Virus record (IMG/VR): IMGVR_UViG_3300042387_001967
DNA length: 64,000 bases
Source of the DNA: a virus
Strand: one strand, 5' to 3'
The notes under the pieces are model-generated. The model was not told the DNA's origin. It searched no databases and was given only the letters and a program-made list of their open reading frames with translations. Below are positions 1 to 59,750 of this stretch, in pieces. The position numbers and the translations under genes were made by a program. Position 1 is the first letter of the stretch, and each line of letters starts with the position of its first letter.

Positions 1-1441
1 CCCGAATGTTCGCGGCCTCCGGGTCGGTGACTCCGATGTCCGGGTAGACATCCTTTCGGGGGATCTCGCGGTTTGCGGCGAGCTGCATGCGCAGCTGCAT
101 CCACTCGGCGTTGTATGCCACGACCGGACGCTTGAGTCGCACCTCCATCTCCTTCGATTCGAAGGCTCGCTGCACCGTGCGCGCGATAAATTTGAGCAGC
201 CCGTCGAGTTCTGCGTAGAGCCACTCATACTGCCGCTCGAACATGCGAATGGCATTCGGCAGCTGCTCCGGATTCAGCGTGCCACGGAATAATTCACGCG
301 GGAATCCAAGCCCGTCGAACAGCTGGTTGGTGTATGCCTCCACGACGTCATACAGCACCATGGCCTTGCCTCCGCCGTCGAAGGTCTGCATCTCGATCGG
401 GAACGGCACCGCGTGGATCGATGTGGCGTCCCTCCGGCGCGCGGCGATCATGTTCTGCATCTCCGAGCGCCAGCGCGACATCAGTGTGGTGAGCACGGCG
501 TCGCCGATGTTTCCACCGAAGTTCGGACTCAGCACTCTCGTCGGATGCAGGAATTCCTGCGCGACGGCGAAGTCCGCCTTCCGGTAAATCGCCAGTTGGT
601 AGAGCGCATCGTAGTGCATCAGCACTTCCGGCACTGCCCATCCGGAATCGGAGACTCCGCACGGCGTCGGCGATCGAAAATGATGCACCTCGCCCTTGCG
701 GAATCGATAGTCCTTGTTCTTCGAGATCGCCTCCAGCAGACCGCGCGGCGTGTTGTTGATCTCGTGCAGCTTGTTGTGCTTGACCCTGGCCTCCATGTCC
801 GGAGGAATCCGGTAGATGTATTCCGTCGTGTCCGCGTGGTGCGGCGAGTCCAGATCCACGTAGCGCGGGTCCAGGAAGATGATGGAGAAGCGGTCAGGCG
901 CAGCAGACGGCTTGTCGCGGAATTCCAACCTCACAGTCGGCAGATCGGCCATCTTGCGCTTTTGTTTCGGCAGCTTCGCCGCCGCTGCCATGTCCGGCAC
1001 CTCGTAAACCATATCGGACCAGTGATACTTCACCAAATGTTCCGGAAATATGTCCAACGAAATGGCGCGCTGGAGTCCGTCGCGGTTGTCGACGAGCCAG
1101 CGATCGAACGGCTCGACGCAGCGGACGAACGCCTGGCCGTAGATGGCCCACTCTGTGCCGGCCTTCTGCATCTTCGAGAAGATGCGCAGCGTTTCCGTCA
1201 GCAGCCGCTCCAGCTTCTTCTGTTCGTCCTTGTCGCCCGCGTCGACGAATTCGATCCCGGTGATGAAATAGGAAATTACCCGGTTGCATACTGCTCCGTA
1301 CAGACGGTTGGTCCGGTAGAGATAGAGACACAAGTCGAACGTGGACTTGATGTCGCTCGGGAATGAATCTGTCGACGGAAGCAGGAATGGATCTCCAAAC
1401 TTTTTGGAACCGTTCAGAAAGGAGTTGGAGATGACGGCCAT
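1..1441 (-). CDS. Putative phage portal protein (runs off the left edge)
   Basis: Frame read from ATG 1441 (MAVISNSFLNGSKKFGDPFLLP...FDLCLYLYRTNRLYGAVCNRVISYFITGIEF); also open at the left edge (...MQLAANREIPRKDVYPDIG); middle not fully translated. Absent from the ORF track because no stop lies in the window. N-terminal pattern resembles large-phage portals as I recall them. Confidence 0.55.
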   Translation of the reverse strand, partial: MAVISNSFLNGSKKFGDPFLLPSTDSFPSDIKSTFDLCLYLYRTNRLYGAVCNRVISYFITGIEFVDAGDKDEQKKLERLLTETLRIFSKMQKAGTEWAIYGQAFVRCVEPFDRWLVDNRDGLQRAISLDIFPEHLVKYHWSDMVYEVPDMAAAAKLPKQKRKMADLPTVRLEFRDKPSAAPDRFSIIFLDPRYVDLDSPHHADTTEYIYRIPPDMEARVKHNKLHEINNTPRGLLEAISKNKDYRFRKGEVHHFRSPTPCGVSDSGWAVPEVLMHYDALYQLAIYRKADFAVAQEFLHPTRVLSPNFGGNIGDAVLTTLMSRWRSEMQNMIAARRRDATSIHAVPFPIEMQTFDGGGKAMVLYDVVEAYTNQLFDGLGFPRELFRGTLNPEQLPNAIRMFERQYEWLYAELDGLLKFIARTVQRAFESKEMEVRLKRPVVAYNAEWMQLRMQLAANREIPRKDVYPDIGVTDPEAANIR

Positions 1442-1454
1442 CGGTTAAAGCGTG

Positions 1455-2261
1455 TCAGTTTGCGCGCGGACGATCGAAGTCCAGCCTGGCTGCCCCGGCG
1501 ACATTAGCGACGGATTTGCCGACCTCCGGGAACCGCGCGCTGGCGCTCTTCTCGCCCTCCGCAATGGGCTCGCCGGTTTCGTCGTCAACGCGATCGCTCG
1601 GTCGTCCGGAAACGACCGAAGGAACTCCGTCATGTAATACGCCTTGTTTTTCCACGCTGGCAGACTGAGGCAAAAAGCAGAGCAAGTCAATCCCAACCCC
1701 CGGATAAAGCTGCATCGGCGGCGCCAGGCACAGCACGCGCACGCGCGGGGAATCGCGGTGCTCCAGAAAGCTGATCTCCAGTTCAGATCCCGGGTGCGGC
1801 GCGAACATCGACTCCGAAGATCTCACCATGATCAGCAGCAGGTGCTTGACGCGATGCAGATGCATCGGCTCGGCGCTGCTCCACGCGACTGGTGATTTGA
1901 CGTCGCCAATCGGCGTGTGGAACACCAGCGTGAGTTTCTTCCTGGTGCGATCGCTCAGGCACTTGGCCACGGCCAGCAACTCGCTCTCTGCCTCGGTGCC
2001 GAGCAGTTGCACAAGCACCGGTGGTATGCGTATTCCCGCTTCGCGAACCGTGACAATGGGCGAGTCCGGAATGTCATACTCCGGCGTCGGGACCGCAGGA
2101 ATGCGAATTGTGGCCTGCTCGATTTCGTCCGCTTCGATGACCTCGCTCAGGTCTCCGCTGCGCATTCTCGCCACCAGCGCGTCGGTGGCGTCACCTGGGT
2201 TCGGGGGTCTGGATCCGGACTTCGCGCTCGAGTCCGGCGGCATGGTGGGTTGTGAGTGCAT
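1455..2261 (-). CDS. Hypothetical protein
   Basis: 268-aa ORF in operon-like arrangement just upstream of the portal-like gene; no family recognised. Confidence 0.6.
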   Translation of the reverse strand: MHSQPTMPPDSSAKSGSRPPNPGDATDALVARMRSGDLSEVIEADEIEQATIRIPAVPTPEYDIPDSPIVTVREAGIRIPPVLVQLLGTEAESELLAVAKCLSDRTRKKLTLVFHTPIGDVKSPVAWSSAEPMHLHRVKHLLLIMVRSSESMFAPHPGSELEISFLEHRDSPRVRVLCLAPPMQLYPGVGIDLLCFLPQSASVEKQGVLHDGVPSVVSGRPSDRVDDETGEPIAEGEKSASARFPEVGKSVANVAGAARLDFDRPRAN

Positions 2262-2907
2262 TGATTCTGGTAATGTGACGTTCGACTAGGTCGTAGGTCA
2301 TGGGTTGCTTGTCGATTCTGCCGTCTATTTTGTGGTGCCGGCTGACGAACATACGGCGCTGTCCATCTGCGCCCCGTTCCATCGTCGCGACGATTCGGTG
2401 CGGTGCGAATTTGTCAGCCAGCGGTATCAGCTCCGGGTGCTGCGTCAGGGAGACGTCCACGCTCGTCGGCCAGCCGGCGTCGTAGCGCAGCGTGAACCAG
2501 CCGCGTAGCCCGAACGCGTTGAACGCGAGAACGCAGATCGACAGCGCGCAATCGGTGGCCAGCTGCATCGCTTCCGAGAAAGTTGCCGCCGACGCCCATC
2601 CCACCATGGCCTCCACGCAGGTGCGCGTCACCCGCGCGGGTGCCACGCTGCTCAGCGGCTGGCCGACGACGTCGCAGATGCGCGCAGCCCGCCCGGTTCG
2701 CATCCGTCCGCGATACGGCTTGCTTTTGGAAAGCAGCCGCTTGGCAGTAATCTGCGAGCAGTTCAGCAGCTTCGCAACCGCAGCGCAGCGGTTCGGGAAG
2801 CCGTCGGCATACGAGGACAGGTATTGCATCAGCAGCGGAGTCGACTCCGCTGGCAGCAGACGGTTCTCCGCCCTGCCGATGACACCACCGGCCGGTCCCG
2901 CTGACAT
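2191..2907 (-). CDS. Hypothetical protein
   Basis: 238-aa ORF, abuts 2908-3090; no family recognised. Confidence 0.5.
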   Translation of the reverse strand: MSAGPAGGVIGRAENRLLPAESTPLLMQYLSSYADGFPNRCAAVAKLLNCSQITAKRLLSKSKPYRGRMRTGRAARICDVVGQPLSSVAPARVTRTCVEAMVGWASAATFSEAMQLATDCALSICVLAFNAFGLRGWFTLRYDAGWPTSVDVSLTQHPELIPLADKFAPHRIVATMERGADGQRRMFVSRHHKIDGRIDKQPMTYDLVERHITRINALTTHHAAGLEREVRIQTPEPR

Positions 2908-3090
2908 TTACTTCGAGCCCATGATAGTCTTGAAGAATCCGGACACGTTGCGCTCGCGCCGCGTGTCCTGCTTCACATAACTCGCATTCAGCGCGCTGCG
3001 GCGGGGCTCCGCAATGATCGCTGTGCTGTTGCCGTAACCTTGGTGGCGGGCGTTGCGGATCTGCTCTTGTGTGGGTTGGGATTGGCTCAT
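2908..3090 (-). CDS. Small hypothetical protein (60 aa)
   Basis: ATG 3090 (MSQSQPTQEQIRNARHQGY) fills the gap between 3095 and 2907. Confidence 0.5.
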   Translation of the reverse strand: MSQSQPTQEQIRNARHQGYGNSTAIIAEPRRSALNASYVKQDTRRERNVSGFFKTIMGSK

Positions 3091-3094
3091 GGAA

Positions 3095-4906
3095 TTAGTC
3101 GGGTAGTTTGAGGGTCTTCCCCCGCAGGTTGCTGGGGCTGACCCACTCCTTCTTACCCGTGCGCCGGTTGACGAGCAACTGATAAATTCGACCGTCAGAT
3201 CCGACACGTGCGCCGTGCGCCAGTCGGACGTCGATGCCGGCTTTTTCAGACTCCGGCCCCGCGATCGGATCCACGAAGCCGAACTGCGTGGCGCTGACTG
3301 CCGTCATGTCGTCCGTGATGGCATTCGGGTCGCCGATGCCGCCGGGTCCCATCTTGGTGATGCGACGCTTCTGCTCGAGGATGTGCATCGGGTTGATCTC
3401 CTCCAGCGCTGTGACCAGCGGATTGGACTTGAGGTAGCCCATCGTGTATCCGCCGAACGCGTCCGGGCCCACAGGGTCCAGGGTGCGCATGCGGCTCAGC
3501 CGTCCCATCATCGCGCGCAGGGCATGTCCGTGGTCGAGCTTGATGCGCTCGGCCATCAGGCGGTCCACCGTGTGGACGCGGTCGTTCGGCAGGCTGTCGC
3601 GGTCGTCCGTCTCAGCCAGGCCGCGGTTCACGGCCAGCAGCTTCTCGGTGGCAGCCAGCAGGCCGTCGATGCCCACCGGTGCATACTTCTCGTGCTCGTC
3701 GTCGTCCGCCAGGTAGCGGTGATGCGCCATGGGCGACTTCATCGGCGCTTTCGGCATCGGCTTCGGGACACCGATCGGGACGTAGGTCGATGCCGCCTTC
3801 GCAAACGCAGTCGGGCCATAATCCTGCGGATTGGCAAGCTGGTCCTCGTAAATGGGCACCTCACCCATCAATTGCCGAAGGGCGCGCGCCGTCACATTGC
3901 CGTGCAGCGCGTTATCCCGATGGGTCAGGTTGAACCGATCCGCCACCCACTTCCGACGATCGTCAGGCGTCTTGTCGAAATTCCTGATGAAGCCCTGCCG
4001 GGTGTTGAACGTCATGACGTCATCATCCACCATCTCCACCCGATGCAGCGGCTCATCCTCCTCTGGCTCGATCTCGGGATGTTCCAGCCCCTGCGCGACG
4101 AGGTAGGCGCGCAATTTCTCCAGTGCGACATCAGCGTGCTTGTCCTCCACCGATGCGTGCACATCCCCGGTGTGGGCGTCATTCACGGCCAGGCCCGAAG
4201 CTTGCAGCTCCTTGAGGATCGCGTGCCAGTTCTTCCGCAGCCCCACGCCCTGCAGCTTGTCGCCGGACAGCCGGAAAGTCTTCGCCATCTTTTCCATCGG
4301 AAACTCCAGATACTTCGGATCAATCTTCCCCGTCGGATGGATGATCTGGACGTGCGGCACGTCGCCGGCATACCGGCCGTGCCCGGGCTCGAAGTGCTTC
4401 CACAGTTCCTTCGGATTCTTCGCGCGCTCGATGAGCTGCTTGATCTCATCGATCTTCAGGTCGTGATGCCGCGCGGCAAGGATCGGCTCCTTCTCTTCGT
4501 CCGACATGGCGTCCCACTCCTCGTCGCTCAGATGTCCCCACAGCGACTTCCCTGGGGCCAGCTCGACGCCGTGCAGGCGCGTGTCTGGCGCGTCCCGCAG
4601 CAGGGCTTCGAGATCGATCCGCAGCGGCACAGACTTCCGCTGGTTCATCGGGTGCGTCGCGTCGCCCTTGATGCGGTCCGTGTCGGGCTGGCCGAAGAAT
4701 GCGGACGGGCCGGCGAACGACGCCTTCCACGGTTCCTCCTTCAGCTTCTTCTCCCGGAATGCCAGCCACTCGTCGGCCGCCTTGCCGGGGCGCGCGAGTT
4801 CCAGCAGGTGCCGGTTCTCCGGGCGCGCAAGGATGTCGCCGGACAGCAGCCCGTGCTCACGGACGGAGTCCAGCGTTTCTTCGGGGATGTAGGACAGGAG
4901 TTTCAT
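3095..4906 (-). CDS. Fusion protein: unknown N-terminal domain + acylphosphatase-like domain + RNA polymerase beta (RpoB)-like fork-loop fragment
   Basis: C-terminal ~200 aa: GLAETDDRDSLPNDRVHTVDRLMAE (cf. RpoB GEVDDIDHLGNRRIRSVGE), EEINPMHILEQKRRITKMGPGGI (cf. [23 protein letters not shown]), FGFVDPIAGPESEKAG (cf. YGRVCPIETPEGPNIG). Middle: SGDKLQGVGLR...GLAVNDAHTGDV (acylphosphatase GxVQGVGFR signature). Confidence 0.8.
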   Translation of the reverse strand: MKLLSYIPEETLDSVREHGLLSGDILARPENRHLLELARPGKAADEWLAFREKKLKEEPWKASFAGPSAFFGQPDTDRIKGDATHPMNQRKSVPLRIDLEALLRDAPDTRLHGVELAPGKSLWGHLSDEEWDAMSDEEKEPILAARHHDLKIDEIKQLIERAKNPKELWKHFEPGHGRYAGDVPHVQIIHPTGKIDPKYLEFPMEKMAKTFRLSGDKLQGVGLRKNWHAILKELQASGLAVNDAHTGDVHASVEDKHADVALEKLRAYLVAQGLEHPEIEPEEDEPLHRVEMVDDDVMTFNTRQGFIRNFDKTPDDRRKWVADRFNLTHRDNALHGNVTARALRQLMGEVPIYEDQLANPQDYGPTAFAKAASTYVPIGVPKPMPKAPMKSPMAHHRYLADDDEHEKYAPVGIDGLLAATEKLLAVNRGLAETDDRDSLPNDRVHTVDRLMAERIKLDHGHALRAMMGRLSRMRTLDPVGPDAFGGYTMGYLKSNPLVTALEEINPMHILEQKRRITKMGPGGIGDPNAITDDMTAVSATQFGFVDPIAGPESEKAGIDVRLAHGARVGSDGRIYQLLVNRRTGKKEWVSPSNLRGKTLKLPD

Positions 4907-5220
4907 AACGTCGCGCAGGTTGGTTGCGGCATGCTGCGTATCCAGACTGCCTCCACCCTGTGCTCGATCCCGCTCATGCCCAAAGGAGGGCGATGAGTAG
5001 TGACGTATTCAAGCGTTCCGCGCATGAGATCAGTCACCGCCTTGATTTGAGCATCGCACGTGTCTGACAATTCTTGCGTCAGAGTCCCGTCGCCGGGCAG
5101 AGAGATTACCATGAACCACATGTCTTCGTCCGCCGCCTTGCGTATCTCGAAAGGCAGAGCGAAAACTCCCAGCGCCTCATAGCCTCCATGTTGTGCTTGT
5201 GTCATTTGTGATTGTGTCAT
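4903..5220 (-). CDS. Hypothetical protein between the RpoB-like fragments
   Basis: 105 aa from ATG 5220; ATGA overlap with the start at 4906. Confidence 0.55.
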   Translation of the reverse strand: MTQSQMTQAQHGGYEALGVFALPFEIRKAADEDMWFMVISLPGDGTLTQELSDTCDAQIKAVTDLMRGTLEYVTTHRPPLGMSGIEHRVEAVWIRSMPQPTCATL

Positions 5221-5221
5221 T

Positions 5222-5449
5222 TTATTGTAGATCCTCCGGTTTGCTGTATCCCCCAAGTGAGCACTCAGACACGCGCTCCGTGCCAGGTATCTGCACTCGG
5301 TAATGACGCACCTGGAATCTTACATCATCCCGAGGTTGCCTAAGCCCGCACGTGAGCAAATTGATCACATCTTCTTCCTGATCCCTGGTAGGCGGGGCAG
5401 CAGACTCCGTCGTAATTTCCACCTCGAATTTGTGCGTGGTTGTCGTCAC
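5222..5449 (-). CDS. Small hypothetical protein between the RpoB-like fragments
   Basis: 75 aa; ATGA overlap with the stop of 5446-6933. Confidence 0.5.
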   Translation of the reverse strand: MTTTTHKFEVEITTESAAPPTRDQEEDVINLLTCGLRQPRDDVRFQVRHYRVQIPGTERVSECSLGGYSKPEDLQ

Positions 5450-6933
5450 GACAGATCCTCCGGTTTGATGTAGCCCTCCAGCGCCAGCGTCATCAGCTCC
5501 CCAGGTCCAGGGGTGCCGACCGCGTCAGCGCCGCGACCGCGCGCCAGCTTAGCCAGGCGTTCGCGCTCGGAGTCGTCGAAGTCGTGCCGCTGCATGTAGT
5601 GGCGGACATACTCCTTGCGCCGGTAGCCTTCCATCCCCTCCTTGAAGTCTTCCCGCTGCTTAGCGGGCAGCAGCTTCAGCGGGTCGATGCCCCAGTTGAC
5701 CAGGGCGAACGCGCGGCGTGGTGTCGGCTTGGCCTCGAACTGCGCGCCGGTCCGAGCCTTGAAACTTTTCCACCTGGCGATCTGCTTCTCGTCTGTCTCG
5801 CCGCGGCGACCGGTGTGGTAGTTCTCATACCACTGCAGCCAGCCCTGCTTGTCGGTGTCGTCCAGCCAGTGCTCCGGCCACGCGCGCATGGACGCAAGGC
5901 GCGGACCTTTGCCGCCGTAGATCGCGTTGTAGGACTCCTTGAGTTCGTCCGGCGTGAAGTCCGGGGAGAACGCTGCGCGCTTGGTCAGCGGCACGTCGAA
6001 CGATTCCCACTGTCCCCAGATCTGTTCGGGCGTGAAGTCAGGATCGAACGGGACGGCTGCCGCCTTGGTCATGCGGTCGGCTGCGTCGATCGCGGTCCCC
6101 GCCATCCTCCAGCTTGCCGCCTTCTCGTGGCTGTAGAGGTTCGGCAGGTTCTGCTTGAGAATCGACTCCGCCACCTGGGCGCGGTCCAGCGCCGCCCGGA
6201 TGTCCTTCACGCGGTCCTCTGGCGCACGCGCGGGGTCGCGCTCCCACTTTGGGATCACCTTGTTGTACACGCGGTCCAGTGTATGCCTCGAATACTTCGC
6301 CCGGTTGGCTTCGAGAATCTCCGGCCCCCACCGACGCGCGAGCTCCTCGTCCGTCACCCCGAGGTCCTTGAACACCGAGTAGGCGTGCAGGTCCGACGAT
6401 CCCACCTTGAGACGATACTGCGCCGTGCGCGGGTCGAACGACACCCGCAGGGCCGAGCCGGTGCCGGGGCGCACGTTCAGATGCGTCTCGAGCTCGCCAT
6501 TGTCCCGGCGTCGCGTGTAGGCCCCAGGCAGCAGGCGCGACTGCATGGCTGGGGCATACTCGGATCCGTTCTCGATGAACGTCCCGCGCTCCGTCAGGTA
6601 AGGCACTCGGGCCAGCGTCACATTCTTGCGCTCGTCGAGCACCTCGTTGGTCACGTCGTCCACGAGCCGCATCGTTCCGCGCAGCCGGCGCACGAGCGAC
6701 TTGTCGTCCAGCAGCGCCTCGCGTTGCTCGGCTTTGGTGAACCTCGCCGGACCGACATGCTTCATGTCTTTCAGCTCCAGCCGGACTCCGCCGTAGGCGT
6801 AGCCGTTGACGTAGCGCTGCATGGACTGCATCACAGAGGTATCGATCGCCTCCCGCGTGGCGTCGGAATCTTCCGGGTCGCGCAGCGTGACGCCTTCTGG
6901 CGGCTCAGGGATGTCGGAGGATGGATTCGGCAC
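5446..6933 (-). CDS. Fusion protein: RpoB-like N-terminal fragment + C-terminal GWLQWY...GRR...QIARW domain
   Basis: LRGTMRLVD...[31 protein letters not shown] matches RpoB [49 protein letters not shown] matches ATIILRALNYTTEQI. Confidence 0.8.
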   Translation of the reverse strand: [495 protein letters not shown]

Positions 6934-6977
6934 GTACAGCTTTTACCGCAGTCTGTCACTCGTTGCAATCCGTTACA

Positions 6978-9626
6978 TTATCGGTTCAGGTGTTTCTCCA
7001 GGAAGTCGTGCTTCGCATCGTCCGCCTCGTTCGTGTAGTCCAGCACCAGCTCCAGGTCCGCATTCGCGCGCGCAGACTTCTCGTGCAGTCGGTCAAACGA
7101 CTCCTTCGGAATTTCGTCAGGACGACGCAAGATCTGCAGCGGCTTGCGCGTGGTGGACCGCACCCATTCCAGGATGTTCTTGTCGTGCATCTTTCGCATG
7201 CGCGACATCACCGTGACCGGCTCGGCGCCGCACTGCTCCGCCAGCGCATCCACGTCGAACTGCCACCAGCCGTCCTTCTCCACGCCGACGTCGAAGATCG
7301 CGTCGCGCGTTTCCGATTCCTTCTTCGTCATGGTCGGAATGACTTCCTCAAACCGGATGCGATGCTGCCGCGCGGCGTCCGCGTCGTGCGCGAAGATTCG
7401 CTCACCCAGGCAGAACGACATGATGGCCTGGGTCGCGAACGGATCGATCGAAGCCCGCTTGCATATCTCATCGCGCGACGCCGTGATCGCCCCGTTGGCG
7501 CCCTCACGCATCTGACTTGCCGCCTTGAAGAACGCCTTGATGTCCTCCGGCGTTGGATTGCCGCAGCGGATGAAGTGCTTCCGCGTGCGAATGCCCTCAG
7601 GAGTCGGGATGATCGTGCAGTAGGAGTCGAGACCGTCTCTGCCTGCGCGACCCGCTTCTTGCGCCAAAGCCACCAGAGTGCCCGGGATGTCGAAGTGCAC
7701 CACGTGTCTGATATTGCTTTTGTCCACGCCCATGCCGAACGCGTTCGTGGCCACGATGACTGCCTCGGGGTCCGCCATGAACTTGTCCTGGTTGAACCGA
7801 CGATCCGGCTGCAGCATTCCGCCGTGGTAGAAGTAGACCGGGCGGTTGGTGTAGCGGCTGATGGCCGCCGCGTATTCCTCCACCCTCTTACGCGTGGAAG
7901 CGTAGACGATGGTCGGCCCCTCGCAGTTCGCAGCCACCCAGGGTGCGGCCTCCGACATGCGGTCCAGGAACAGGGACGCCAGATGCAGATTCGTGCGGCG
8001 CGGGTAGTGGTAGATCAGCTTGGCCTTGAGGATGCCCAGACCGCTCCGCACCTCCGCCTCAGCCTCCTCGGACAGCGTCGCAGAGAACGCCGCCACCACT
8101 TTCGGCTGCACCTTCTGGATGAACTCCCCGGCGAACTTGTAGCCGGGACGGAAGGTGTCCGCCCAGTCATGGAACGTGTGACAGTTTCCTATCACGACAA
8201 CTTTTCCGCTGCGTCGAACCACGATGCACCCGGTGGGTACAGTCACGCAGTAGACCATTCCGTCGTAGTCCGTCACGCGCTTCCTGAATTCCTGCGTGTC
8301 TACGGTTGGCTCGCCCAGGCGAATGAACAACCGGTGTACATCGCTGAATGCGTCCGACCTGTGATCCACCTGCAATGTTTTTCGGGCGCGCAGTCCAGCG
8401 CGTATGCAGACTTCCTGGAAGTAGTCTGTGTTGTCCTCCACCGTGCTGCTGTAGTAACCCAGCGAATCGCTGACGTCGCTACCATCCCAGGCGATGCATT
8501 CGTCGACCAGCGCGCGACAGGCATCAGCCGACAGATCGTTGTAATCAAGCACCTCGCGCATGATCTTGGAAAGCCCGGGCACCCCCGTCACGATGAACCT
8601 TCGACGGCTACCATCTGATCGGTCTTTTACCTCGTTGAAGGCATAACCGCCGTCTTTCATGATCTGCAGGAATCGCTTGATCTTTCGCTGCTTCACGAAC
8701 GAAAACGCAGCAGACGATTTGCTGTGGGCGTTTCCGTCCGCCTGAAAAGCAGTCTGAAGACGCTCCCAAGGTGTCAATGCGGAGCGTCCAGTGCCGGCGC
8801 CGGCTGCGGCTCTCATACGCCACATGTAGCTGAACTTGGCGTCCGCGGCAGTTCGCTTTCGCCAGCTGCCGTCAGCCCTGTAAACCAGCAGATCGTGATT
8901 CGGAGTTACCGAGATGTCTATGCCGCTGGTCGATTCGATGTGGATCATCTCTCCTTTGTGCCGCCTACGTATGACGCGCGACGGAACGACCAGCGTCATC
9001 TCGTGCGTGTCCGGATCCACCTGAGCCACCTGATCTGCATCGTCCAGTGCATCGAATCTCACGAATCCACGACCCGTGAGAATCTCAACGTCAGGCGCAA
9101 AGCACTCGTCCATCGCCACAAAATCAGGCGGGAACTGCGACACCACGTTCGACCACTCCGGATTCGAGAAGCGCTCCGGGCTGACCAGCATGAACTGCAG
9201 CGTGCCCGACGCCCAGTCCCGCAGCACCGAGGCGTTGTGTCCGTCCGTCTCCTGGCTGGAGATGGACGCCGCAGCAAGCCCCTTGCGCTGCATGGACGTG
9301 GCCTGGTCACGCATGAGCGCGATCAGCGGGTAGATGACGATGGTGCGCCAGCCCATGCACAGCGTCGGCACAACGAAGCATGCACTTTTCCCAGACCCGG
9401 TTGGCAGGATCGTGATCGTGTCCCGCTGCGCCATGATGGACTTCACCGATCGGTCCTGCCCCTCCCGGAGCGTGCTGAACCGCAGGCTGTTCAGGACCGC
9501 CGGCATCTTCTTCATTCCCTGCATCAGCGCCTGTATTTCGGCGGTGGTTGTTACGGCTTTCCGCGCTTCGATCGGAGGACTTTCAGTTTCGGATTCTTCG
9601 GGTTTCGGTTTGGTCAGAGTCGACAT
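6978..9626 (-). CDS. recQ: RecQ-family SF2 helicase containing an intein
   Basis: ILPTGSGKSACF (motif I), YPLIALMRDQ (Ia), VSPER, spliced MDE/CHTFHDWADTFRPGY (II), FSATL (III), IVYASTRKRVE (IV), YHGGM, VATNAFGMGVDK (V), QEAGRAGRDG (VI). Confidence 0.9.
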   Translation of the reverse strand: MSTLTKPKPEESETESPPIEARKAVTTTAEIQALMQGMKKMPAVLNSLRFSTLREGQDRSVKSIMAQRDTITILPTGSGKSACFVVPTLCMGWRTIVIYPLIALMRDQATSMQRKGLAAASISSQETDGHNASVLRDWASGTLQFMLVSPERFSNPEWSNVVSQFPPDFVAMDECFAPDVEILTGRGFVRFDALDDADQVAQVDPDTHEMTLVVPSRVIRRRHKGEMIHIESTSGIDISVTPNHDLLVYRADGSWRKRTAADAKFSYMWRMRAAAGAGTGRSALTPWERLQTAFQADGNAHSKSSAAFSFVKQRKIKRFLQIMKDGGYAFNEVKDRSDGSRRRFIVTGVPGLSKIMREVLDYNDLSADACRALVDECIAWDGSDVSDSLGYYSSTVEDNTDYFQEVCIRAGLRARKTLQVDHRSDAFSDVHRLFIRLGEPTVDTQEFRKRVTDYDGMVYCVTVPTGCIVVRRSGKVVVIGNCHTFHDWADTFRPGYKFAGEFIQKVQPKVVAAFSATLSEEAEAEVRSGLGILKAKLIYHYPRRTNLHLASLFLDRMSEAAPWVAANCEGPTIVYASTRKRVEEYAAAISRYTNRPVYFYHGGMLQPDRRFNQDKFMADPEAVIVATNAFGMGVDKSNIRHVVHFDIPGTLVALAQEAGRAGRDGLDSYCTIIPTPEGIRTRKHFIRCGNPTPEDIKAFFKAASQMREGANGAITASRDEICKRASIDPFATQAIMSFCLGERIFAHDADAARQHRIRFEEVIPTMTKKESETRDAIFDVGVEKDGWWQFDVDALAEQCGAEPVTVMSRMRKMHDKNILEWVRSTTRKPLQILRRPDEIPKESFDRLHEKSARANADLELVLDYTNEADDAKHDFLEKHLNR
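8184..9104 (-). mobile_element. Intein (307 aa, LAGLIDADG-type) in RecQ Walker B
   Basis: Starts CFAPDVEILTGRG, block B VTPNH, endonuclease-like motifs TAFQADG and ECIAWDG, block F VYCVTV, ends VIGN followed by Cys+1. Confidence 0.9.
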
Positions 9627-10063
9627 GATGATAGTTGCACGGCGATGATCATGGAGAGGTCATCGCCGACTTTGAATGTGTGGAATAAACCTCGACATCT
9701 CATGCGTTGCAGCGCCGCCAGCATGTCCGCCCACGGATCGGCGACAGCCAGCCATAACGACTCCGGGCCGGATGCGGTCGTGTCCTTCACCACATACATC
9801 GACCCCGGCGTCGACAGCAGATGTTCCGCAAGCGGCGTCGACTCCTCGTTCATGATGTCCGTCGCGACAGCCGCCACCCACGGATACAACCCGTGGGTGG
9901 CGACGATCAACAGCCGCAGGGGTGAGTCGGCCGGCAGGCTGTCCACTGCCGCGGTCTTGACATCGTCGAGAGCGTCAGACGCCGGCACTCCCAGCAGCTT
10001 CGCCAGCATGCGGCTGACGACCGAGTCCGATGCCTTCACCGGCGACGGTGCGTGACGCTTCAC
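9614..10063 (-). CDS. Hypothetical protein
   Basis: 149 aa; overlaps both neighbours as in an operon. Confidence 0.6.
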   Translation of the reverse strand: MKRHAPSPVKASDSVVSRMLAKLLGVPASDALDDVKTAAVDSLPADSPLRLLIVATHGLYPWVAAVATDIMNEESTPLAEHLLSTPGSMYVVKDTTASGPESLWLAVADPWADMLAALQRMRCRGLFHTFKVGDDLSMIIAVQLSSCRL

Positions 10064-15150: not shown

Positions 15151-15872
15151 TGGTGTTTTGGCTGGGGTAGTCCGGCGAGCGCCCGCTGCAAACGCAGAAC
15201 GTAGGCGCGTAGAAACTCGAAGAATTCGTCCTCCGTCCTGGTCCACTTCAACGTGTTGCAGTCGTAGCAGGCGATGCGGAAGTTCGCCGTGTGGTGTGCG
15301 CCTCCTCGATCGCACGGGGTAGCGTGATCGACTGAAGTTGCTTCCGGGCGTAGTGGATCAGTGCAGTAGTAGCACTCACCTCGTTGTCGCTCGAATATCT
15401 GCAGCAGGTCTTGCGGTTTGCAGACGTAGTCCAAATCCTTCAGCGCCACTTTGCTCACCTTCACGCCGCGTCGTTTGGCCAACGCTTGTCGGCCGGCGGT
15501 GTTACACGTGTATGCTTTCTTGCGCCACCATGCCTCGTCAAAACCAGAAGACCGGCGAGAGTCCGAGTTGTAGACGCGCGTCAGACAAGTGTCGCATATC
15601 TTGTTCAACTTTTCCTGGCATCGTCGATTCTTTCTCGGTGAGAACTCGCTGAGAAGCTTATGTCGAAAACATTTCACACAGACACGCCGCCCAGACGCGT
15701 CGTCCGGCGCGGCTAGGAGTGCCAGCTTTTTATCTCGCCGCTTTTTCGCGATTTCCTCTTTGTTGTAGCTGCGGACGCACGCCAGACACCTCCCTTTGGA
15801 TTTGCCACCGGAATAGTGTATCGGCGCTCCTGTGTCGCAGTGCGGGCATATAGGATCGTTCATGGCGATCAA
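15147..15872 (-). CDS. HNH endonuclease with Zn-finger N-terminus
   Basis: CYYC...SVDHATPCDRGGAHHTANFRIACYDCNTLK; overlaps the polymerase stop. Confidence 0.85.
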   Translation of the reverse strand: MIAMNDPICPHCDTGAPIHYSGGKSKGRCLACVRSYNKEEIAKKRRDKKLALLAAPDDASGRRVCVKCFRHKLLSEFSPRKNRRCQEKLNKICDTCLTRVYNSDSRRSSGFDEAWWRKKAYTCNTAGRQALAKRRGVKVSKVALKDLDYVCKPQDLLQIFERQRGECYYCTDPLRPEATSVDHATPCDRGGAHHTANFRIACYDCNTLKWTRTEDEFFEFLRAYVLRLQRALAGLPQPKHQ

Positions 15873-18800
15873 CTTACACCATACGCAGTCTTGACGTCAA
15901 CAGGCTTCTGTAGGTGCCCCAAACCCGCGAGCATAAGCAGATTGGGGTGCTGCTCTAAAAACTTCAACTTGCTGGAAGGTGCGTGAAACTCTCGATCATC
16001 CAACGTCCGCTGATCCTCATCGTTCGGTCGTGTAGACCACCGGTAGTTGAACTCGTTCTCGATAGAGTAGCGCAGCGTTCTAGCTCCGCGCTCATCGTTG
16101 TAGTCCCAGGTGTTCAACTCAGACATGCAGAGCGTGTGTAACCGCGCGACGAGGAATCGCTCCTCTAGCGGAGCCAGCGTCACGACGGAGTCATATAAAC
16201 AGATCATCGGACGCGCTTTCATTCCCAGTCTACGATACGCCATCAGCAACCAGTTACACGCTCGCGCTGAGGTGCTTGCAACTGATTCCTGCATGGCGTA
16301 ATTCTTCATCTCGCGACCCAGGGCGCTGTCGATCGAGTTGCGCGTGCGCCAGCTCACGCCGCTACCGGCCGAGTGCGTCAGGCAGTGACGAATGCGTCCG
16401 GACGCTGCGCGATACATACCACGCTCCTTCGGCGTCCTGGCCATCTCCTCCAGGAACTCTGTCGCGCGCGGTTGACGTTCGCGTATAGCTTCCAGCCCAC
16501 GCTCGCCGGTACCCTCCTCCGGCTTGACGCCGGTGACAGCTTCGATCTGTCGCTCTAGCGAATTTTCAGAGGCGCCATAGGCGCTAGAAAAGTTGAGTAC
16601 CTTCCCGGCCGCTCTATCCTTCTTGGCCTTCATCATCTCGCGATACTTACCGTATGTGCTCTCCACCAGCGACCAGTGAATGTCGTAGCGAGTGTGTACC
16701 ACGGCGCCGGACTCGTCCCGCAGCAAATCGCTCTCCTCGACCTTACCAAGACACACACCATCCGCCCATACGTGCATCAGGAATTTCGGGTTTTGCGCAT
16801 TCTCCGGGATGCCAGATGTCTTCGCGTCAGTGAACGCCACCCTCACCACGGTCGCGCCATACATCTTACTCTTCAGTCTCGCCCACTCGGGGTCCGGATC
16901 AAACAGAATGCGCATCAGATCCTTGTCCCCGGAGATCATCGCCAGCGCGACCATCTCAGCCGTGACGTAATCGCTCTCGACCAGCACGTAGCCTTCCGGA
17001 GCCTGCACGCACGACCGTATCGACGGCAAGTCGTCTGCGTCCCTGTCGACCCATCGCAGCAGATTCTCCGGCAGGTCGCCTTCCTCGTGGGCTTCCTTCA
17101 CGCAGCGCGCCACAGACGCCGAGATGCGCCTGTTCACGAAGCTCGGCCAGTTGAGCACGTTTGGGAAGAACGTCCGCGGCCGGCCCGTCTCCGTCGATGA
17201 CGTCTGCGGGTGGATGCGGCCGTCGCTCTGCAGCCACAGGTGCAAGCCGTTCTCCTCGATGACTTCCTCGCCGGTGTCCTCGTCGATCTCGATCGTCGGC
17301 TCCTTCAGGAACGCCTTCGACAAGTTGCCGACGGCGTTCAGGTTCAGAAGCTCGTCGATGGCGGGCAGCTGCTCCGAGAGAATCGCGAGCGTCTGCTTGT
17401 CCACCGCGGGCTTGTAAAGCGACTGGCGGTCCTCAGGCAGCTCCAGCACTTTCTCCCACGCCATGGACGGCAGGCCCTTGGCCTTCTGGTTGGTGGACTT
17501 GATCGGGACGAGCTCCTCGAAGTCGAACAACCAGCGCACCATCTGGTCAGGAGACCGGATGTTGAACGCCGGGGAATCCTCCCAATGGGCGATCCACTTG
17601 TTCCACTTCGGCACCTCCGCGAGCTTGCCGGCGTCGAGCAGCATCTGCTTCACCTGCGTGCGCAGCAGCTCGCCGTCATGCGCCACGATCGCCGGCAGGC
17701 ACAGCTTAGTCGCCGCGACACCGAACGCCTTGATGAGCTTCGACCTGAGCTTCGACTCCGCCTCCGCAGCCACCCGTCGCTTGAACGTCTTGTCCAGACG
17801 CAGCTTCGCGAAGGTGAACAGGTGACGCAGGTCGTCCATCATCGAGATGTCCATCGGCAGCCCGGTCATGCAGAACTCGACGAACACGTCCGATGAGAAC
17901 GGACCGAACATGTCGCGGTAGTAGGCCCACAGCCGCTGCGCCTCCAGCTGCCGCTTGATCAGCGGGTAGGCACGATACGGCGTGATGACGTCAGCCGCAG
18001 CGTAGGGATGCAGGATGGCGCTCGGGATGAAGCCGTAGCCGCCCTTGCAGAGATCCTTATTCTCGCGCTTCCACATGACGAGCTCTTGGTCGTATCGACC
18101 CAGGCTCGTGTATTGCATTGCGATGCGCTCCAACCCGAGGTCCGAGCTTTCGTCGGAAACCTGCTGCGCAAACTCCGTGTCCATTTCCAGCTTCCCGTAG
18201 GTCTCCATCCCGAGCCAGTGCTGCATCCACGGGGCGTCCGCCGGGAAGTGGTGGCCGATGTAGCGGACGCCGAGGCGTGCGAAGGTGCTCGCGATCGGTC
18301 TGCCGATGGTTGCGTAGCGGAACCTGTCGACGACTTCCGGACACGTCTTCTCCTTTTGCAGCGCCGCCAGCCGGTTGGCCTCGACTATGAAGTGCACGTA
18401 GGCTTCCCTGCTTTCTGCTGGGTTCGGTGTTGGCATCTCGAAACTCCACTCACCCTTCTCGTCCCGAAACTCGATCACCACGGCGTCAGTCTCCGACCAC
18501 GCGAACTGAATCGTCCGAAACTTTCCGTCGATGTGCGTCCTGCCGTGCCACTCGCCGTCCACCGACACGAGCGGGTTGCCGTGCTCGTCCTTGAGTCCCG
18601 GCCAGCGGTCCTCCTCGACAAGCGTCTCCAGGTGGCTAAGCCAGTCCTCCAGTTCGTCCATGTTGCGAATCACCTGATGCGTGAAGGTCTGGCCGACGAT
18701 GTTACCGCCGTTGTCCAGGATCTCCTTGCGCCGGGCCGCCTCCTTGAAGTCGATGCGGAACATCTCGTAATACTCCGGCTTGCCGACCAGAAGCGACGGC

Positions 18801-19366
18801 GCATACATCACGTAGAGGTGCGCCTGGTGATCCTCTGACCAGAACCAGCAGCCGTGGGCGTCATCGAAGCTGATCTTCTGCGGGCTGAGCATGTCGAACA
18901 CGTGCTTGCCCAGGCAGACGATGATCTTCGGTTTCACGCGGGCGATCTCGTCCTCGAGGATCGGCATCCCCCACTTCATGATCTTCTTCGCCGGCTTCGA
19001 CCGCTGCGCGCGCGGCAGCAGCCACTTGCAGCACGCGGTGTAGTAGCACCGCTCCATGTCGATTCCGGCCCGCAGCGCCACGTCCTTGATGATGCCCGTG
19101 GACCCTTTCAGATACTCGGCCGGCTGCGGGATTCGCATGCCGAACACCGAGGTGGCCGCAGTCGCCGCCTCGTCCTCCTCAAGGGAGGACGTGACGAACA
19201 TGATGTCGTATTCCTCCTGCTTGTCCACCAGGGCCCGGCCTGCGACGTAGAGCACGCCGTCGATGTGTCGGGTCTTGGTCAGCGTCCTGGGGCACTTCGC
19301 AGCCTCGTCGTAGGGAGGTTGCAGCTCCTCCAGTGTCCGCCCGCGGCGGGATGGTGTTTCGCTCAT
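15869..19366 (-). CDS. polA: Family A DNA polymerase with N-terminal UDG-family-4-like domain and 3'-5' exonuclease
   Basis: UDG-like YYTACCKW...EIARVKPKIIVCLG; exonuclease VSVDGEW; polymerase PNVLNWP, motif A ESDYVTAEM, motif B RAAGKVLNFSSAYG, motif C LYDSVV. Confidence 0.9.
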   Translation of the reverse strand: MSETPSRRGRTLEELQPPYDEAAKCPRTLTKTRHIDGVLYVAGRALVDKQEEYDIMFVTSSLEEDEAATAATSVFGMRIPQPAEYLKGSTGIIKDVALRAGIDMERCYYTACCKWLLPRAQRSKPAKKIMKWGMPILEDEIARVKPKIIVCLGKHVFDMLSPQKISFDDAHGCWFWSEDHQAHLYVMYAPSLLVGKPEYYEMFRIDFKEAARRKEILDNGGNIVGQTFTHQVIRNMDELEDWLSHLETLVEEDRWPGLKDEHGNPLVSVDGEWHGRTHIDGKFRTIQFAWSETDAVVIEFRDEKGEWSFEMPTPNPAESREAYVHFIVEANRLAALQKEKTCPEVVDRFRYATIGRPIASTFARLGVRYIGHHFPADAPWMQHWLGMETYGKLEMDTEFAQQVSDESSDLGLERIAMQYTSLGRYDQELVMWKRENKDLCKGGYGFIPSAILHPYAAADVITPYRAYPLIKRQLEAQRLWAYYRDMFGPFSSDVFVEFCMTGLPMDISMMDDLRHLFTFAKLRLDKTFKRRVAAEAESKLRSKLIKAFGVAATKLCLPAIVAHDGELLRTQVKQMLLDAGKLAEVPKWNKWIAHWEDSPAFNIRSPDQMVRWLFDFEELVPIKSTNQKAKGLPSMAWEKVLELPEDRQSLYKPAVDKQTLAILSEQLPAIDELLNLNAVGNLSKAFLKEPTIEIDEDTGEEVIEENGLHLWLQSDGRIHPQTSSTETGRPRTFFPNVLNWPSFVNRRISASVARCVKEAHEEGDLPENLLRWVDRDADDLPSIRSCVQAPEGYVLVESDYVTAEMVALAMISGDKDLMRILFDPDPEWARLKSKMYGATVVRVAFTDAKTSGIPENAQNPKFLMHVWADGVCLGKVEESDLLRDESGAVVHTRYDIHWSLVESTYGKYREMMKAKKDRAAGKVLNFSSAYGASENSLERQIEAVTGVKPEEGTGERGLEAIRERQPRATEFLEEMARTPKERGMYRAASGRIRHCLTHSAGSGVSWRTRNSIDSALGREMKNYAMQESVASTSARACNWLLMAYRRLGMKARPMICLYDSVVTLAPLEERFLVARLHTLCMSELNTWDYNDERGARTLRYSIENEFNYRWSTRPNDEDQRTLDDREFHAPSSKLKFLEQHPNLLMLAGLGHLQKPVDVKTAYGVS

Positions 19367-29404: not shown

Positions 29405-29812
29405 TTATTTGCTTCCTCCCCAGATTCCGTCCCCTGCTAGCCTTCTATCCCGGTCTGCGTGCACTTCGTGTAAGTGCAACTTCCTCCGTATCTCGTCGCG
29501 CTCCGCGAACTTCGATGAGTAAGGGCGCTTGCCTTTGAGCGCGACAGAGAGCTGCCGGTTGAGTTCGTCGAGCGCGACATCGCCCTCACGTTCAGCGGTC
29601 TGCACGTAATCCAGCATCCCGTCCACCTGCGGCAGGATTGCCAAGATCAGCTTGTCCCGGGTGCGCCAGTCGTCCGGATCCATTCCGAGCGCAAGCATCG
29701 CAGTGACGGCGATCGCGCTCGAGGCAGAGACGCCTTCTTCGTTGTCGAGTCGCCACACGCTACCTGACTTGCCTCGCCGAACTGCGAAGGGATTGGTTTT
29801 TGGTTTGCTCAT
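29405..29812 (-). CDS. Hypothetical protein
   Basis: MSKPKTNPF..., ATGA overlap with the helicase stop. Confidence 0.55.
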   Translation of the reverse strand: MSKPKTNPFAVRRGKSGSVWRLDNEEGVSASSAIAVTAMLALGMDPDDWRTRDKLILAILPQVDGMLDYVQTAEREGDVALDELNRQLSVALKGKRPYSSKFAERDEIRRKLHLHEVHADRDRRLAGDGIWGGSK

Positions 29813-32280
29813 GCTGTCTTTGCTGTGAATCGCTGGAACCGGAACTCCCGGCGCACTTGAATGTTGTTTCCCTCGCCCTTTCTGGCCTTGCACAGGCAGA
29901 ACAGCTGGTCATCGAGGAACATGCTGCGAGGCATGTCCGCCTTGCCGCGCTCTGCCGCCACGATGCCGGCCTTGTCGATCGTGTTGGTGACGCCGATCAC
30001 GGCGACCATGTTCTTGCCGAGCCCCTTGCTGATGCCTATGTCGTTGATCGTCAGTATGCGCTTGAGCTGTGCATCGTTGACCGCCTGGGCCAGGAGCAGC
30101 GTCGGGATTCCGGAGCGGTCCGCAAACTTCACGCCGCTGTTGGCTGACTGCTCCCAGAGCATTGCCCGCTCCGAGGTGCCGCCGTGCTTGCCGCCCGGCG
30201 CGGCGTCCGCCACCGAGCCCAGCCAGTCCAGACACACCCAGGTCGGGTCGTGTCCCATCTTGGACTTGTAGATCATGCACTCCCGCTCCAGCAGCATCTG
30301 CAGGTTCATCCCGTCATCCGGGGAGACCTTGTGGATGCGCGTGCGCTCGAGGAACTTTGCCAGCACCTCGTCCACCTTCTTGATGCGATACATGGACGCG
30401 GGGTTGCTCATGACCGCCTGCCGTATCTGCGCGACGTTCTCGCAGTCCTGCACGACGTTGATCGGGATACCGGCCGCGTTGGACACCGTGCGCACGGCAT
30501 ACTCACGCGGGTGCAGCTCCGTGGTCACAATCAACGGCCAGCCGTGGTTGTGGCTGGCCTCCCACCAGGCGCACTGCCCCGCGGCGATCGAGTTGTGCGT
30601 AATGGAGAAATCACCCAGCAGGTAGCGACGATCCGGTCCTTCCACGCTGAAACCGTAGTAGTCACCTTCCCCTAGACTTTCCACGGAGAACCCATTGGTC
30701 AGCGGATTTTTGATCTGCCGCCTGGTCGGCGGCGTCACCCTTTTTACAGGCAACACCACGTCGCCGTAAGGCTGTATGAGCGCGCGCCAGCTGGTGCAGT
30801 CGACATCAAACCCACGCGTTACGCGAGGACTGGACACCGTGACCGAGTATCCCAGCGAACGACCCAGAAACGCCACAGCGTTCACTAGGTCTTCCTGCGT
30901 GTTTGAAAACTCCCAGCCGGACTTCGCGACGCACCCGTCGGAATCAAGCAACCCAGCCAGCAGTGCTGCCCTCTCGTCGATGGAGGCGACCAGAAAATGA
31001 GCCGGAACATGCTTATTACGGATCAGTCCCAATTTGCGCAGAGCCGCCTTGAAACCGCCAGTGATGGAAATCTTTTCGCAACGATCCGGGTCGTCCGGAC
31101 GGCGCACGCATGTCCACCCGGCGGATTCGACTATTTCCCGAAGCATCCGCTCGCATCCTGGCTTGCTGATTTCTGGGTGCCACTTGCACCCGTCGCCTAA
31201 CCAAAATCCCAGCAGGTAAGGTGGGATTTCCAACGGAGACGCCTGCTGCGGAAACACCACGATCCCGGCTTGCACCCACTTGGTGACATGCCGAAACTTT
31301 TTGCTGCTCGCCAGATAGTCGTCCAGCGGGACATCAATCAGTGTTCCACTGCGCGCAGCTACGCCGCGAGAGGACCTCACCGTCCTCTTTCCTATGTTGG
31401 TGACAGCCAGAGTCAGCGTGTGGCTGCGGTTGACAACGACAGGTTCGGCCGACCGCAGAGGGGTGATCCGGAACATCTCTTCTCTTCCGCGGACAAGCTC
31501 GGTGACTTTTCTCGGGGTCGAGTCGGGTCCCATGAGCAGGTCGCCTACGACGACATCTTCGACTGCCTTAGTAATACCGTCATACATCAGTATTCGAGTC
31601 CCCTTGCTGTAGCACTTGCCGCCGCCTGTGCCCCCGAAGAGCAGGTAGCACTCGTTGGGGCCCCATCCGCCGTTCAGGCACTCGTCCAGCCCTGTGATGC
31701 CTGTGGGGCGCCTCAGCGTGCGTTCGAGGATCTGACTGCCGGCGAACGCCTGCATGGGGTCCTCCGCGCCTTCTGCGACCGCCTGGGCCGCGGCGGAGAG
31801 GGACCGCTGCATCTCGACGATCTGCCCGGGTACATCGGGAATCACGTCCCGCCGGAGCACCAACGCGGCTTTCTTCGCGCGGATGCTGCCATACCAGGCC
31901 TCGAAGTAGGGCCGGATGCAGTAGTGCTGCTCGCAGAACGATGGGTCCTGCAGTTCCTTGATTAACTTCACAGCGATCGCGACGATCTCGTCATCGGAGC
32001 TTTCCGTCTTCGCGGCGACCTCCAGGTAGGTGCGCAGGAACTCGTAGGTCGGCGGGCACGGCACCTGGTGCCCGATGACGTGCATGATCTTCACGGCGCT
32101 GGTCAGGGCCGCCACGATCAGCGAGTGCTCTTCCCGCTCGAAGTCATCATCCGTCACCGGGACGCTGAGCATCGCTGCGCGCATCAGCGGATCGTGCATC
32201 ATCGCGTGCAGCAGGTAGAACGCGTAGGTGTCGCGGTTGTCCGCGAGCCACTGCTTCATCTCATCTGTGATCTGGGCCAT
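29809..32280 (-). CDS. DnaB-like replicative helicase containing an intein
   Basis: GITGLDECLNGGWGPNECYLLFGGTGGGK/S (Walker A after splicing), IVTTEL, VCLDWL, LLLAQAVN, LCKARKG. Confidence 0.8.
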   Translation of the reverse strand: MAQITDEMKQWLADNRDTYAFYLLHAMMHDPLMRAAMLSVPVTDDDFEREEHSLIVAALTSAVKIMHVIGHQVPCPPTYEFLRTYLEVAAKTESSDDEIVAIAVKLIKELQDPSFCEQHYCIRPYFEAWYGSIRAKKAALVLRRDVIPDVPGQIVEMQRSLSAAAQAVAEGAEDPMQAFAGSQILERTLRRPTGITGLDECLNGGWGPNECYLLFGGTGGGKCYSKGTRILMYDGITKAVEDVVVGDLLMGPDSTPRKVTELVRGREEMFRITPLRSAEPVVVNRSHTLTLAVTNIGKRTVRSSRGVAARSGTLIDVPLDDYLASSKKFRHVTKWVQAGIVVFPQQASPLEIPPYLLGFWLGDGCKWHPEISKPGCERMLREIVESAGWTCVRRPDDPDRCEKISITGGFKAALRKLGLIRNKHVPAHFLVASIDERAALLAGLLDSDGCVAKSGWEFSNTQEDLVNAVAFLGRSLGYSVTVSSPRVTRGFDVDCTSWRALIQPYGDVVLPVKRVTPPTRRQIKNPLTNGFSVESLGEGDYYGFSVEGPDRRYLLGDFSITHNSIAAGQCAWWEASHNHGWPLIVTTELHPREYAVRTVSNAAGIPINVVQDCENVAQIRQAVMSNPASMYRIKKVDEVLAKFLERTRIHKVSPDDGMNLQMLLERECMIYKSKMGHDPTWVCLDWLGSVADAAPGGKHGGTSERAMLWEQSANSGVKFADRSGIPTLLLAQAVNDAQLKRILTINDIGISKGLGKNMVAVIGVTNTIDKAGIVAAERGKADMPRSMFLDDQLFCLCKARKGEGNNIQVRREFRFQRFTAKTA
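30592..31614 (-). mobile_element. Intein (341 aa) with LAGLIDADG homing endonuclease in the P-loop
   Basis: Starts CYSKGTRILMYDG, block B VNRSH, LLGFWLGDG and LLAGLLDSDG, ends ITHN followed by Ser+1. Confidence 0.92.
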
Positions 32281-51380: not shown

Positions 51381-51498
51381 GTTCGTGTCGTAGAGGTGGC
51401 TGTGGGTATGGAGACAGCATAGCCGAATTTTTGCAACTGTGGAAGTGCAAATCCTGACGTGGACTTCCGGCAGAGGATCGCGATAATGCCAAACACCT

Positions 51499-59740: not shown

Positions 59741-59750
59741 GGGTATCAGT

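Follow-up and report, generated by a model that had tools for sequence, protein, structure and literature searches.

RpoB and RpoC can be split at surface loops without loss of function, as in the archaeal B''/B' pair, in cyanobacterial gamma/beta' and in the non-virion RNA polymerases (nvRNAPs) of phages AR9 and phiKZ, and all of these splits, unlike the one described here, are clean, with neither foreign modules nor a common junction motif. Phage T4 loads effectors into its head (the internal proteins and Alt, an ADP-ribosyltransferase), which are carried by a short targeting peptide and trimmed by gp21 at a head-protease motif. The virion RNA polymerases (vRNAPs) of the phiKZ-like phages 201phi2-1, SPN3US and phiKZ are multisubunit enzymes with split beta and beta' subunits that are encoded beside the head genes and packaged in the head: that of SPN3US goes into proheads as an assembled multimer, and the beta subunit of 201phi2-1 has a 275-amino-acid (aa) N-terminal propeptide removed by the prohead protease at its motif (PMC5694885). 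Polyvalent proteins (PMC5512222), finally, are mosaics in which one chain, travelling with the DNA, unites several enzymes; one such chain includes the N4 virion RNA polymerase (RNAP). That enzyme has a single subunit and is packaged uncut. Phage RNAPs that are split, head cargo that is processed by a protease and polyvalent proteins are thus already known; what is new at the locus described here is the presence of fragments of a cellular-type beta subunit within precursor chains that are apparently cleavable and have been reshuffled, all at a single hot spot of insertion. The locus lies in a 64,000-nucleotide stretch of viral DNA (hereafter the window; bases 5813-69812 of the 98,463-bp contig G000 of IMG/VR record IMGVR_UViG_3300042387_001967), where two open reading frames (ORFs) on the minus strand, P0002 (5446..6933, 495 aa) and P0001 (3095..4906, 603 aa), each carry a segment of RpoB, betaN1 and betaN2, respectively, together with modules foreign to it.

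The source is an uncultured jumbo phage of about 200 kb and of the Arash/mReC type with a single bacterial-type multisubunit RNAP: the beta subunit gp206 of Salmonella phage Arash matches the block by tblastn (E 5e-15 and 3e-10; 27-29% identity), and both the portal and the genes of the head module have homologues there, arranged in the same order. Compared with the phiKZ-like vRNAPs, the lineage is unrelated, the enzyme is bacterial-like, and there is one RNAP set rather than two; the motif found here is K-x-A-[A/S] as opposed to the phiKZ-type [S/A/G]-x-E, and what would be removed are folded, exchangeable, enzyme-like modules inside beta instead of the single propeptide of 201phi2-1. The carrier differs as well, being a cellular-type beta fragment rather than the targeting peptide of T4 or the single-subunit enzyme of N4. 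With Arash (gp206/gp216) and the mReC lineage the phage shares a homologous beta, the portal, the head-module order and motif-dense head proteins, whereas the beta subunit of Arash is unsplit and has neither an insertion nor the motif at the betaN1/betaN2 joint; the papers on Arash and mReC describe neither this split nor the passenger modules nor the motif (PMC10585845, PMC7481178).

In the phage studied here, beta is spread over at least three genes, those for betaN1 and betaN2 and, to judge from close relatives, one for the catalytic betaC, and the break between betaN1 and betaN2 is one hot spot just after the lobe that is filled with exchangeable modules in this sub-lineage. We give even chances to the proposal that P0002 and P0001 are precursors cut at K-x-A, that the RNAP is packaged, and that the pieces are injected. 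Polyprotein cutting at K-x-A, as put forward in a preliminary description of this DNA, is partly supported: the split RpoB, the foreign modules and the junction motifs of that description are confirmed, with much added weight from relatives and from statistics over the whole proteome, and the cutting itself is the mechanism that fits the comparative data best and has a measured precedent in 201phi2-1. If true, these would be the first pieces of a bacterial-type multisubunit RNAP made as cleavable precursors together with exchangeable enzymes, linking three topics that are usually kept separate (the splitting of phage RNAPs, processing by head proteases and the injection of effectors as cargo), providing a concrete cleavage code (K-x-A-[A/S], cut ahead of the [A/S]) for a large and almost uncultured phage lineage, and suggesting, in evolutionary terms, a simple reason why beta was broken up step by step across relatives.

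P0002 begins with betaN1 (aa 1-268; 6130..6933), which ends in ...NLPNLYS and is assigned to the N-terminal part of beta1 plus a minimal beta2 lobe because its AlphaFold2 model (mean pLDDT, the per-residue confidence score, 82) aligns both to a beta1-beta2 fragment (Mycobacterium tuberculosis, 4kbj: Foldseek E 8e-10; VIA Z 9.9 over 246 residues) and, with residues 134-267, to an isolated Escherichia coli lobe (7egs: VIA Z 9.5, root-mean-square deviation 3.0). A profile of 54 relatives run against the RpoB chains of the PDB covers residues 24-198 (best 8syi_C, residues 24-197, E 1.2e-8); the RpoB-like part as a whole is aa ~16-270 and has the folds of both beta1 (protrusion) and beta2 (lobe). 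It is followed by a helical or disordered linker of 50 aa (aa 269-318; 5980..6129) with three K-x-A-[A/S] motifs, E270-K-A-A (6112-6126), T289-K-A-A-A (6055-6069) and T317-K-R-A-A (5971-5985), and then by module X (aa 319-450) with a tail (aa 451-495, ending in GYIKPEDLS; together 5449..5979), which is helical and lacks an RpoB counterpart, so that the preliminary description of this ORF as an RpoB N-terminal region plus an unrelated domain is borne out. Directly after two of the three linker motifs stands F-x-P-D-[L/F]-x-P-[E/D] (aa 296-303 and 322-329; ~6025-6048 and ~5947-5970), which is also the N-terminus of stand-alone X proteins; the repeat could be the scar of a duplication, or else serve as a docking peptide.

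The 169 homologues of P0002 are mostly ~495 aa long at 97-100% coverage, and X reaches 44-61% identity even where betaN1 is at ~42%. The passengers had been called unrelated, which is right inasmuch as they are foreign to RpoB, but X is not a random one: it is kept in most relatives and better conserved than betaN1. Many other phages have it as a stand-alone gene of 130-160 aa, and in L039, L040, L051, L057 and L058 it is encoded at another place in the genome. Neither Pfam nor the PDB (VIA) nor an Atlas features search gave a usable match to X; as part of the P0002 model, it bears a weak structural likeness to DUF5824-type viral proteins (TM-score 0.49).

P0001, which runs from module A through module B and a linker to betaN2, has just its last 25-40% in common with its homologues. 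This common part, betaN2 (aa 395-603; 3098..3724), comprises the C-terminal part of beta1 and the fork domain and ends in ...KLPD throughout the family; Rpb2_3 (PF04565) matches aa 500-568 at 27.4 bits against a gathering cut-off of 21, identifying the fork domain, aa 414-592 align with residues 439-625 of the bona fide RpoB P0060, and PHROG 24349 (1191 positions) takes up P0002 at profile positions 77-203 and P0001 at 379-541. Across the family, betaN2 is 60-98% identical, with many invariant residues. The first ~370 aa are not RpoB, in agreement with the two unrelated domains described earlier. Module A (aa 1-204; 4292..4906) is a putative ADP-ribosyltransferase (ART)-type fold of the DarT/Tpt1-like kind, its predicted structure being matched by Foldseek to DarTG 7omu (probability 0.97, E 0.06) and by VIA to 7omu (Z 7.4, 154 aligned), 7yk3 (Z 7.2), 7omv (Z 6.8) and Tpt1 7yw2 (Z 6.2), values that lie within the range VIA calls common; at the sequence level, it had no match in Pfam or the PDB. 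Module B (aa 205-369; 3800..4291), again from its predicted structure, has a putative ferredoxin-like, acylphosphatase-like beta-alpha-beta-beta-alpha-beta core and a helical part; VIA gives Z-scores of 6-8 to many ferredoxin-like folds, and Foldseek finds acylphosphatases that are 23-24% identical to it (E 0.2-0.4). The junction A369-K-A-A-S373 and a Pro/Lys-rich spacer (3725..3802) come after module B and precede the conserved HHRYLADDDEH.

The fork domain of most relatives (P0008-P0056) contains a mini-intein or a LAGLIDADG intein at GPE/C...N/SEKAGIDV, the slashes marking its ends. The GPE/SEK site is uninterrupted in P0001 (aa 552/553; ~3248-3250) and holds ~300 aa in L006/L007, which are 98% identical elsewhere. 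An intein was rejected as the cause of the P0001/P0002 break, given that Pfam finds no Hint or intein family in either protein and that the true inteins of relatives sit elsewhere.

The catalytic part of beta (Rpb2_6, with the double-psi beta-barrel, DPBB) is found neither in the window, as had been noted before, nor in the ~50% complete 98-kb contig, and Pfam and PHROG scans of its ~45 other ORFs yielded no more RNAP pieces. Record G004, which is 98% identical, does have an Rpb2_6 piece, ~14 kb further downstream, and the domain is present as a single copy in each of five related records. The break between betaN2 and betaC, after the fork domain, is one that we take to resemble the archaeal B''/B' break.

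The comparison with relatives that have a contiguous subunit, which the preliminary description had called for, gives the direction of the change. BetaN1 and betaN2 are contiguous in one frame in the distant relatives L039-L065 and in cultured phages, namely Arash, whose gp206 is one gene of 1525 aa, and D69, D148 and D181 of Vibrio; the direct joint reads ...LDPEVT.RTLG...L.LDAVL..., and one relative has a 1480-aa ORF that also holds Rpb2_6. Since beta is contiguous in these distant relatives, one site just after the lobe has taken up modules and then broken into genes. The commonest layout among relatives is a betaN1-linker-X gene followed by a stand-alone betaN2 gene (L008-L013); others are betaN1-linker-betaN2 (the P0036 group), betaN1-X-betaN2 (P0057) and betaN1-A-...-betaN2 (P0009). 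The linker site holds variable inserts of 130-340 aa between betaN1 and X in some relatives, NUDIX among them; others have a 2H phosphoesterase domain elsewhere in the chain. Upstream of betaN2 there may be A by itself, A followed by B, A together with an AAA_33 kinase domain, InPase or others. In P0007, which is 98% identical, module B is exactly deleted and A is joined to betaN2 at T-E-K-A-A-S; in P0059, A-B precedes a DNA ligase, with K-Q-A-A at both joints; and in P0058, A-B is reordered with NUDIX and an acylphosphatase. The points of exchange coincide exactly with motifs. The presence of A, B, X, NUDIX, 2H, AAA_33, InPase and ligase in varying combinations, in a genome with portal and terminase, matches what is expected of polyvalent proteins.

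What all these layouts share is the motif: K-x-A-[A/S] occurs at every module joint in at least eight architectures. In almost every betaN2 homologue that is extended at its N-terminus, K-x-[A/S/G]-[A/S] lies some 20-25 aa ahead of HHRYL, whatever stands upstream (A-B, A alone, A with other modules, the betaN1 linker, InPase or X), and stand-alone betaN2 genes begin 5-16 aa ahead of HHRYL. Likewise, stand-alone X begins 1-5 aa before F-x-P-D, and fused X has the motif 2-4 aa before it. To judge from these sequences, stand-alone betaN2 and X start where cleavage would leave N-termini. Conservation of the motif at the junctions in homologues, on which the earlier proposal depended, is seen in distant relatives of P0002: it lies at most ~5 residues from the betaN1 end in 17 of 17 and immediately ahead of X in 14 of 17, and in the alignment of 54 relatives its K and A columns carry 3.0-3.8 bits, the x column 1.2-1.5 bits. 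The motifs listed earlier at particular junction residues of P0001 and P0002 are all present, with the reservation that the one between A and B, E205-K-M-A-K, is degenerate.

The motif is also not spread evenly over the genome. In the 91 ORFs of the contig there are 59 copies of K.A[AS] where shuffles predict 26 (2.3-fold, z 6.7), and 23 of [TE]K.A[AS] where they predict 3.2 (z 11), with no enrichment of the controls R.A[AS], E.A[AS] and the reversed pattern; its density per 1000 aa is 8.06 in eight head-block proteins and 0.87 in twelve replication/packaging enzymes. The motif codons differ between sites and therefore point to selection at the protein level; the same variation from site to site led us to reject K-x-A as a conserved DNA recombination signal. 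The motif Ala is GCA at 11 of the 23 [T/E]-K-x-A-[A/S] sites in G000, GCA making up 14% of Ala codons genome-wide. Among the head proteins, the candidate capsid protein (G000 91490-92458; PHROG 2522, E 4e-6) has V-K-K-A-S at residue 28, a motif retained at residues ~28-33 in relatives down to 38% identity, and Arash gp220, gp223 and gp225, from its head module, have five to seven copies each. The candidate head protease (G000 94739-96205; PHROG 18299, E 1.6e-4) belongs to a family of 2,183 representatives at 50% clustering, in which His, Ser, Asp and Glu columns are invariant and the conserved domain is directly followed by an almost invariant K-A-A-S, as would be expected for self-cleavage: T4-type and phiKZ-type proteases cleave themselves at that position after the domain (PMC5694885). 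The same short motif is thus found in the capsid protein, scaffold-like proteins, the candidate protease and the candidate substrates. Five K-x-A-[A/S] each are present in two proteins from outside the head block (window 50313-51554 and G000 1722-3197, both on the minus strand), which are candidates for further substrates or cargo chains.

Put together, the proposed course of events would be as follows: K-x-A-[A/S] would be the recognition site of the head-maturation protease of the phage; the P0002 and P0001 precursors would join the polymerase complex and then be packed into the prohead, where the protease would cut them into betaN1, X, A (perhaps A-B) and betaN2; and the virion would carry a ready polymerase and free accessory enzymes, both entering the next host with the DNA. 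That the pieces are cut apart by the head-maturation protease is probable from the placement of the motif. Packaging is suggested by the conserved neighbourhood of portal and beta and by Arash particle preparations, where beta has the most spectra and both beta and beta' are present (PMC10585845). If the chain were cut at that site anyway, gene fission, cassette insertion and module swapping there would cost nothing, which might be why the architectures are so varied. More tentatively still, the packaged polymerase subunit could be a capsid-entry vehicle for exchangeable counter-defence/RNA-repair enzymes (ART/Tpt1-like, 2H, kinase, NUDIX, ligase-associated), with gene fission licensed by proteolysis and X a released, lineage-specific partner of the polymerase.

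Several observations weigh against processing in the head. High-GC proteomes commonly have Ala-rich linkers; the A/B joint of P0001, being off-consensus, may be left uncut; betaC in relatives has neither the motif nor a propeptide; and the contiguous Arash beta has no motif at the betaN1/betaN2 joint. (Arash gp206 starts with M-P-K-S-A-S, with the motif at residues 3-6, a copy that may be there by chance.) The candidate protease has no sequence or profile match in Pfam or the PDB, and hhalign against HK97 gp4 gave none. Complete relatives hold one beta set, and with one RNAP set per genome the uncleaved forms may therefore also have to work in the cytoplasm. The packaging evidence from Arash is itself weak because near-full coverage is also seen for many non-structural proteins in that preparation: the 116 proteins of its proteome include ribonucleotide reductases and helicases, often at ~100% coverage (PMC10585845).

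In the main rival reading, the modules are lineage-specific surface-loop insertions that stay attached, as bacterial beta SI1 does; betaN1 would carry X and betaN2 would carry A-B, so that accessory enzymes remain tethered to the polymerase while it transcribes, and the motif would be an uncut linker or docking element. Such an arrangement, which we regard as unlikely, would sit well with the modules found within one continuous betaN1-...-betaN2 chain in P0009, P0042, P0049 and P0057, with the single RNAP set, which must at some stage be able to function with its parts uncleaved, with X being better conserved than betaN1 and always linked to beta, as expected of a true subunit, and with the splits at surface loops that other RNAPs tolerate. 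It fits less well than cleavage, however, because it leaves unexplained the ~9-fold concentration of the motif in head proteins, its positions at the capsid N-terminus and after the protease-like domain, the stand-alone orthologues that start just past its position, and the same modules standing before a DNA ligase.

Alternatively, the proteins might be cut at K-x-A-[A/S] in the cytoplasm, either by themselves or by some other protease of the phage or the host; the polymerase would then not belong to the virion, and the modules would simply be early or middle proteins translated along with it. The helicase, UvsX and PolA genes that precede the block do lie on its strand, no terminator-like site separates them from it, and betaC has no motif; we nevertheless consider this account improbable, as the motif is dense in the head block and scarce in replication proteins, the block runs straight into the portal gene, and family scans of the contig found no other protease. 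A decaying, non-functional gene whose RpoB N-terminal half is being broken by insertions is hardly credible. It would accord with the fragmentation, the orphan ORFs P0003 and P0004 and the inteins nearby, but all three of betaN1, betaN2 and X are intact, show 40-98% identity over hundreds of contigs and retain many invariant residues, conserved termini (...KLPD) and a tight coupling of translation.

The two orphan ORFs between P0002 and P0001 are P0004 (5222..5449, minus strand, 75 aa), for which no homologue and no Pfam or PHROG match was found and which is missing from the 98%-identical relatives L006/L007, and P0003 (4903..5220, minus strand, ~105 aa), likewise without a Pfam or PHROG match and kept only in L006/L007, at 93% identity. 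The 3' end of P0004 repeats 15 nt of the P0002 3' end (5446-5480), CAAACCGGAGGATCT, containing a GGAGGA ribosome-binding site (Shine-Dalgarno); P0004 is an inserted cassette flanked by this duplication, which, by standing at both ends, accounts for the ...KPEDL tail common to the two proteins more simply than a docking peptide would, and the latter idea was dropped. That P0003 and P0004 might supply a missing lobe was rejected too, the lobe being already inside P0002 and both small ORFs being absent in most relatives. Coupling of the whole block by ATGA overlaps, as first described, applies to P0003/P0001; the overlap at P0002/P0004 is GTGA, and P0004 and P0003 are 1 nt apart if P0003 starts at ATG 5220 (the ORF list gives TTG 5256). 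A 59-aa ORF (2910-3089, minus strand) is tightly packed between P0001 and the next gene, with a TAA stop directly followed by ATG.

Downstream of the beta block and on the same minus strand, as are most genes of the contig (61% G+C), lies the portal gene (2..1441 in the window; G000 5382-7253, 623 aa on the whole contig), with a BLASTP E of 2e-29 to the Arash portal gp204. Portal and beta pieces are syntenic in nearly all related loci, and in Arash, too, gp204 adjoins gp206. A search of GenBank phages with the block at the DNA level gave no match, and a promoter/terminator scan of positions 1-10000 was uninformative. Near the block are genes for an intein-containing DEAD-box helicase, a UvsX-like recombinase, an HNH endonuclease and a DNA polymerase of family A with a uracil-DNA glycosylase (UDG)-like N-terminal domain (15869-19366, minus strand); farther on come a Dda-like helicase, a primase, a DnaB-like helicase (29809-32280, minus strand) split by a Hint + LAGLIDADG intein, SbcCD and the terminase, and after these the tail and head genes. 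The intein of the DEAD-box helicase (6978-9626, minus strand) spans ~aa 176-476, with a weak Intein_splicing match at 203-464 that falls under the Pfam cut-off; it is cleanly absent in the 98%-identical L006/L007 and is, therefore, a recent gain or loss. A sigma-70-like gene (59012-59776, minus strand) has Sigma70_r3 above the Pfam cut-off and matches PHROG 351, and its product could direct either polymerase, that of the phage or that of the host.

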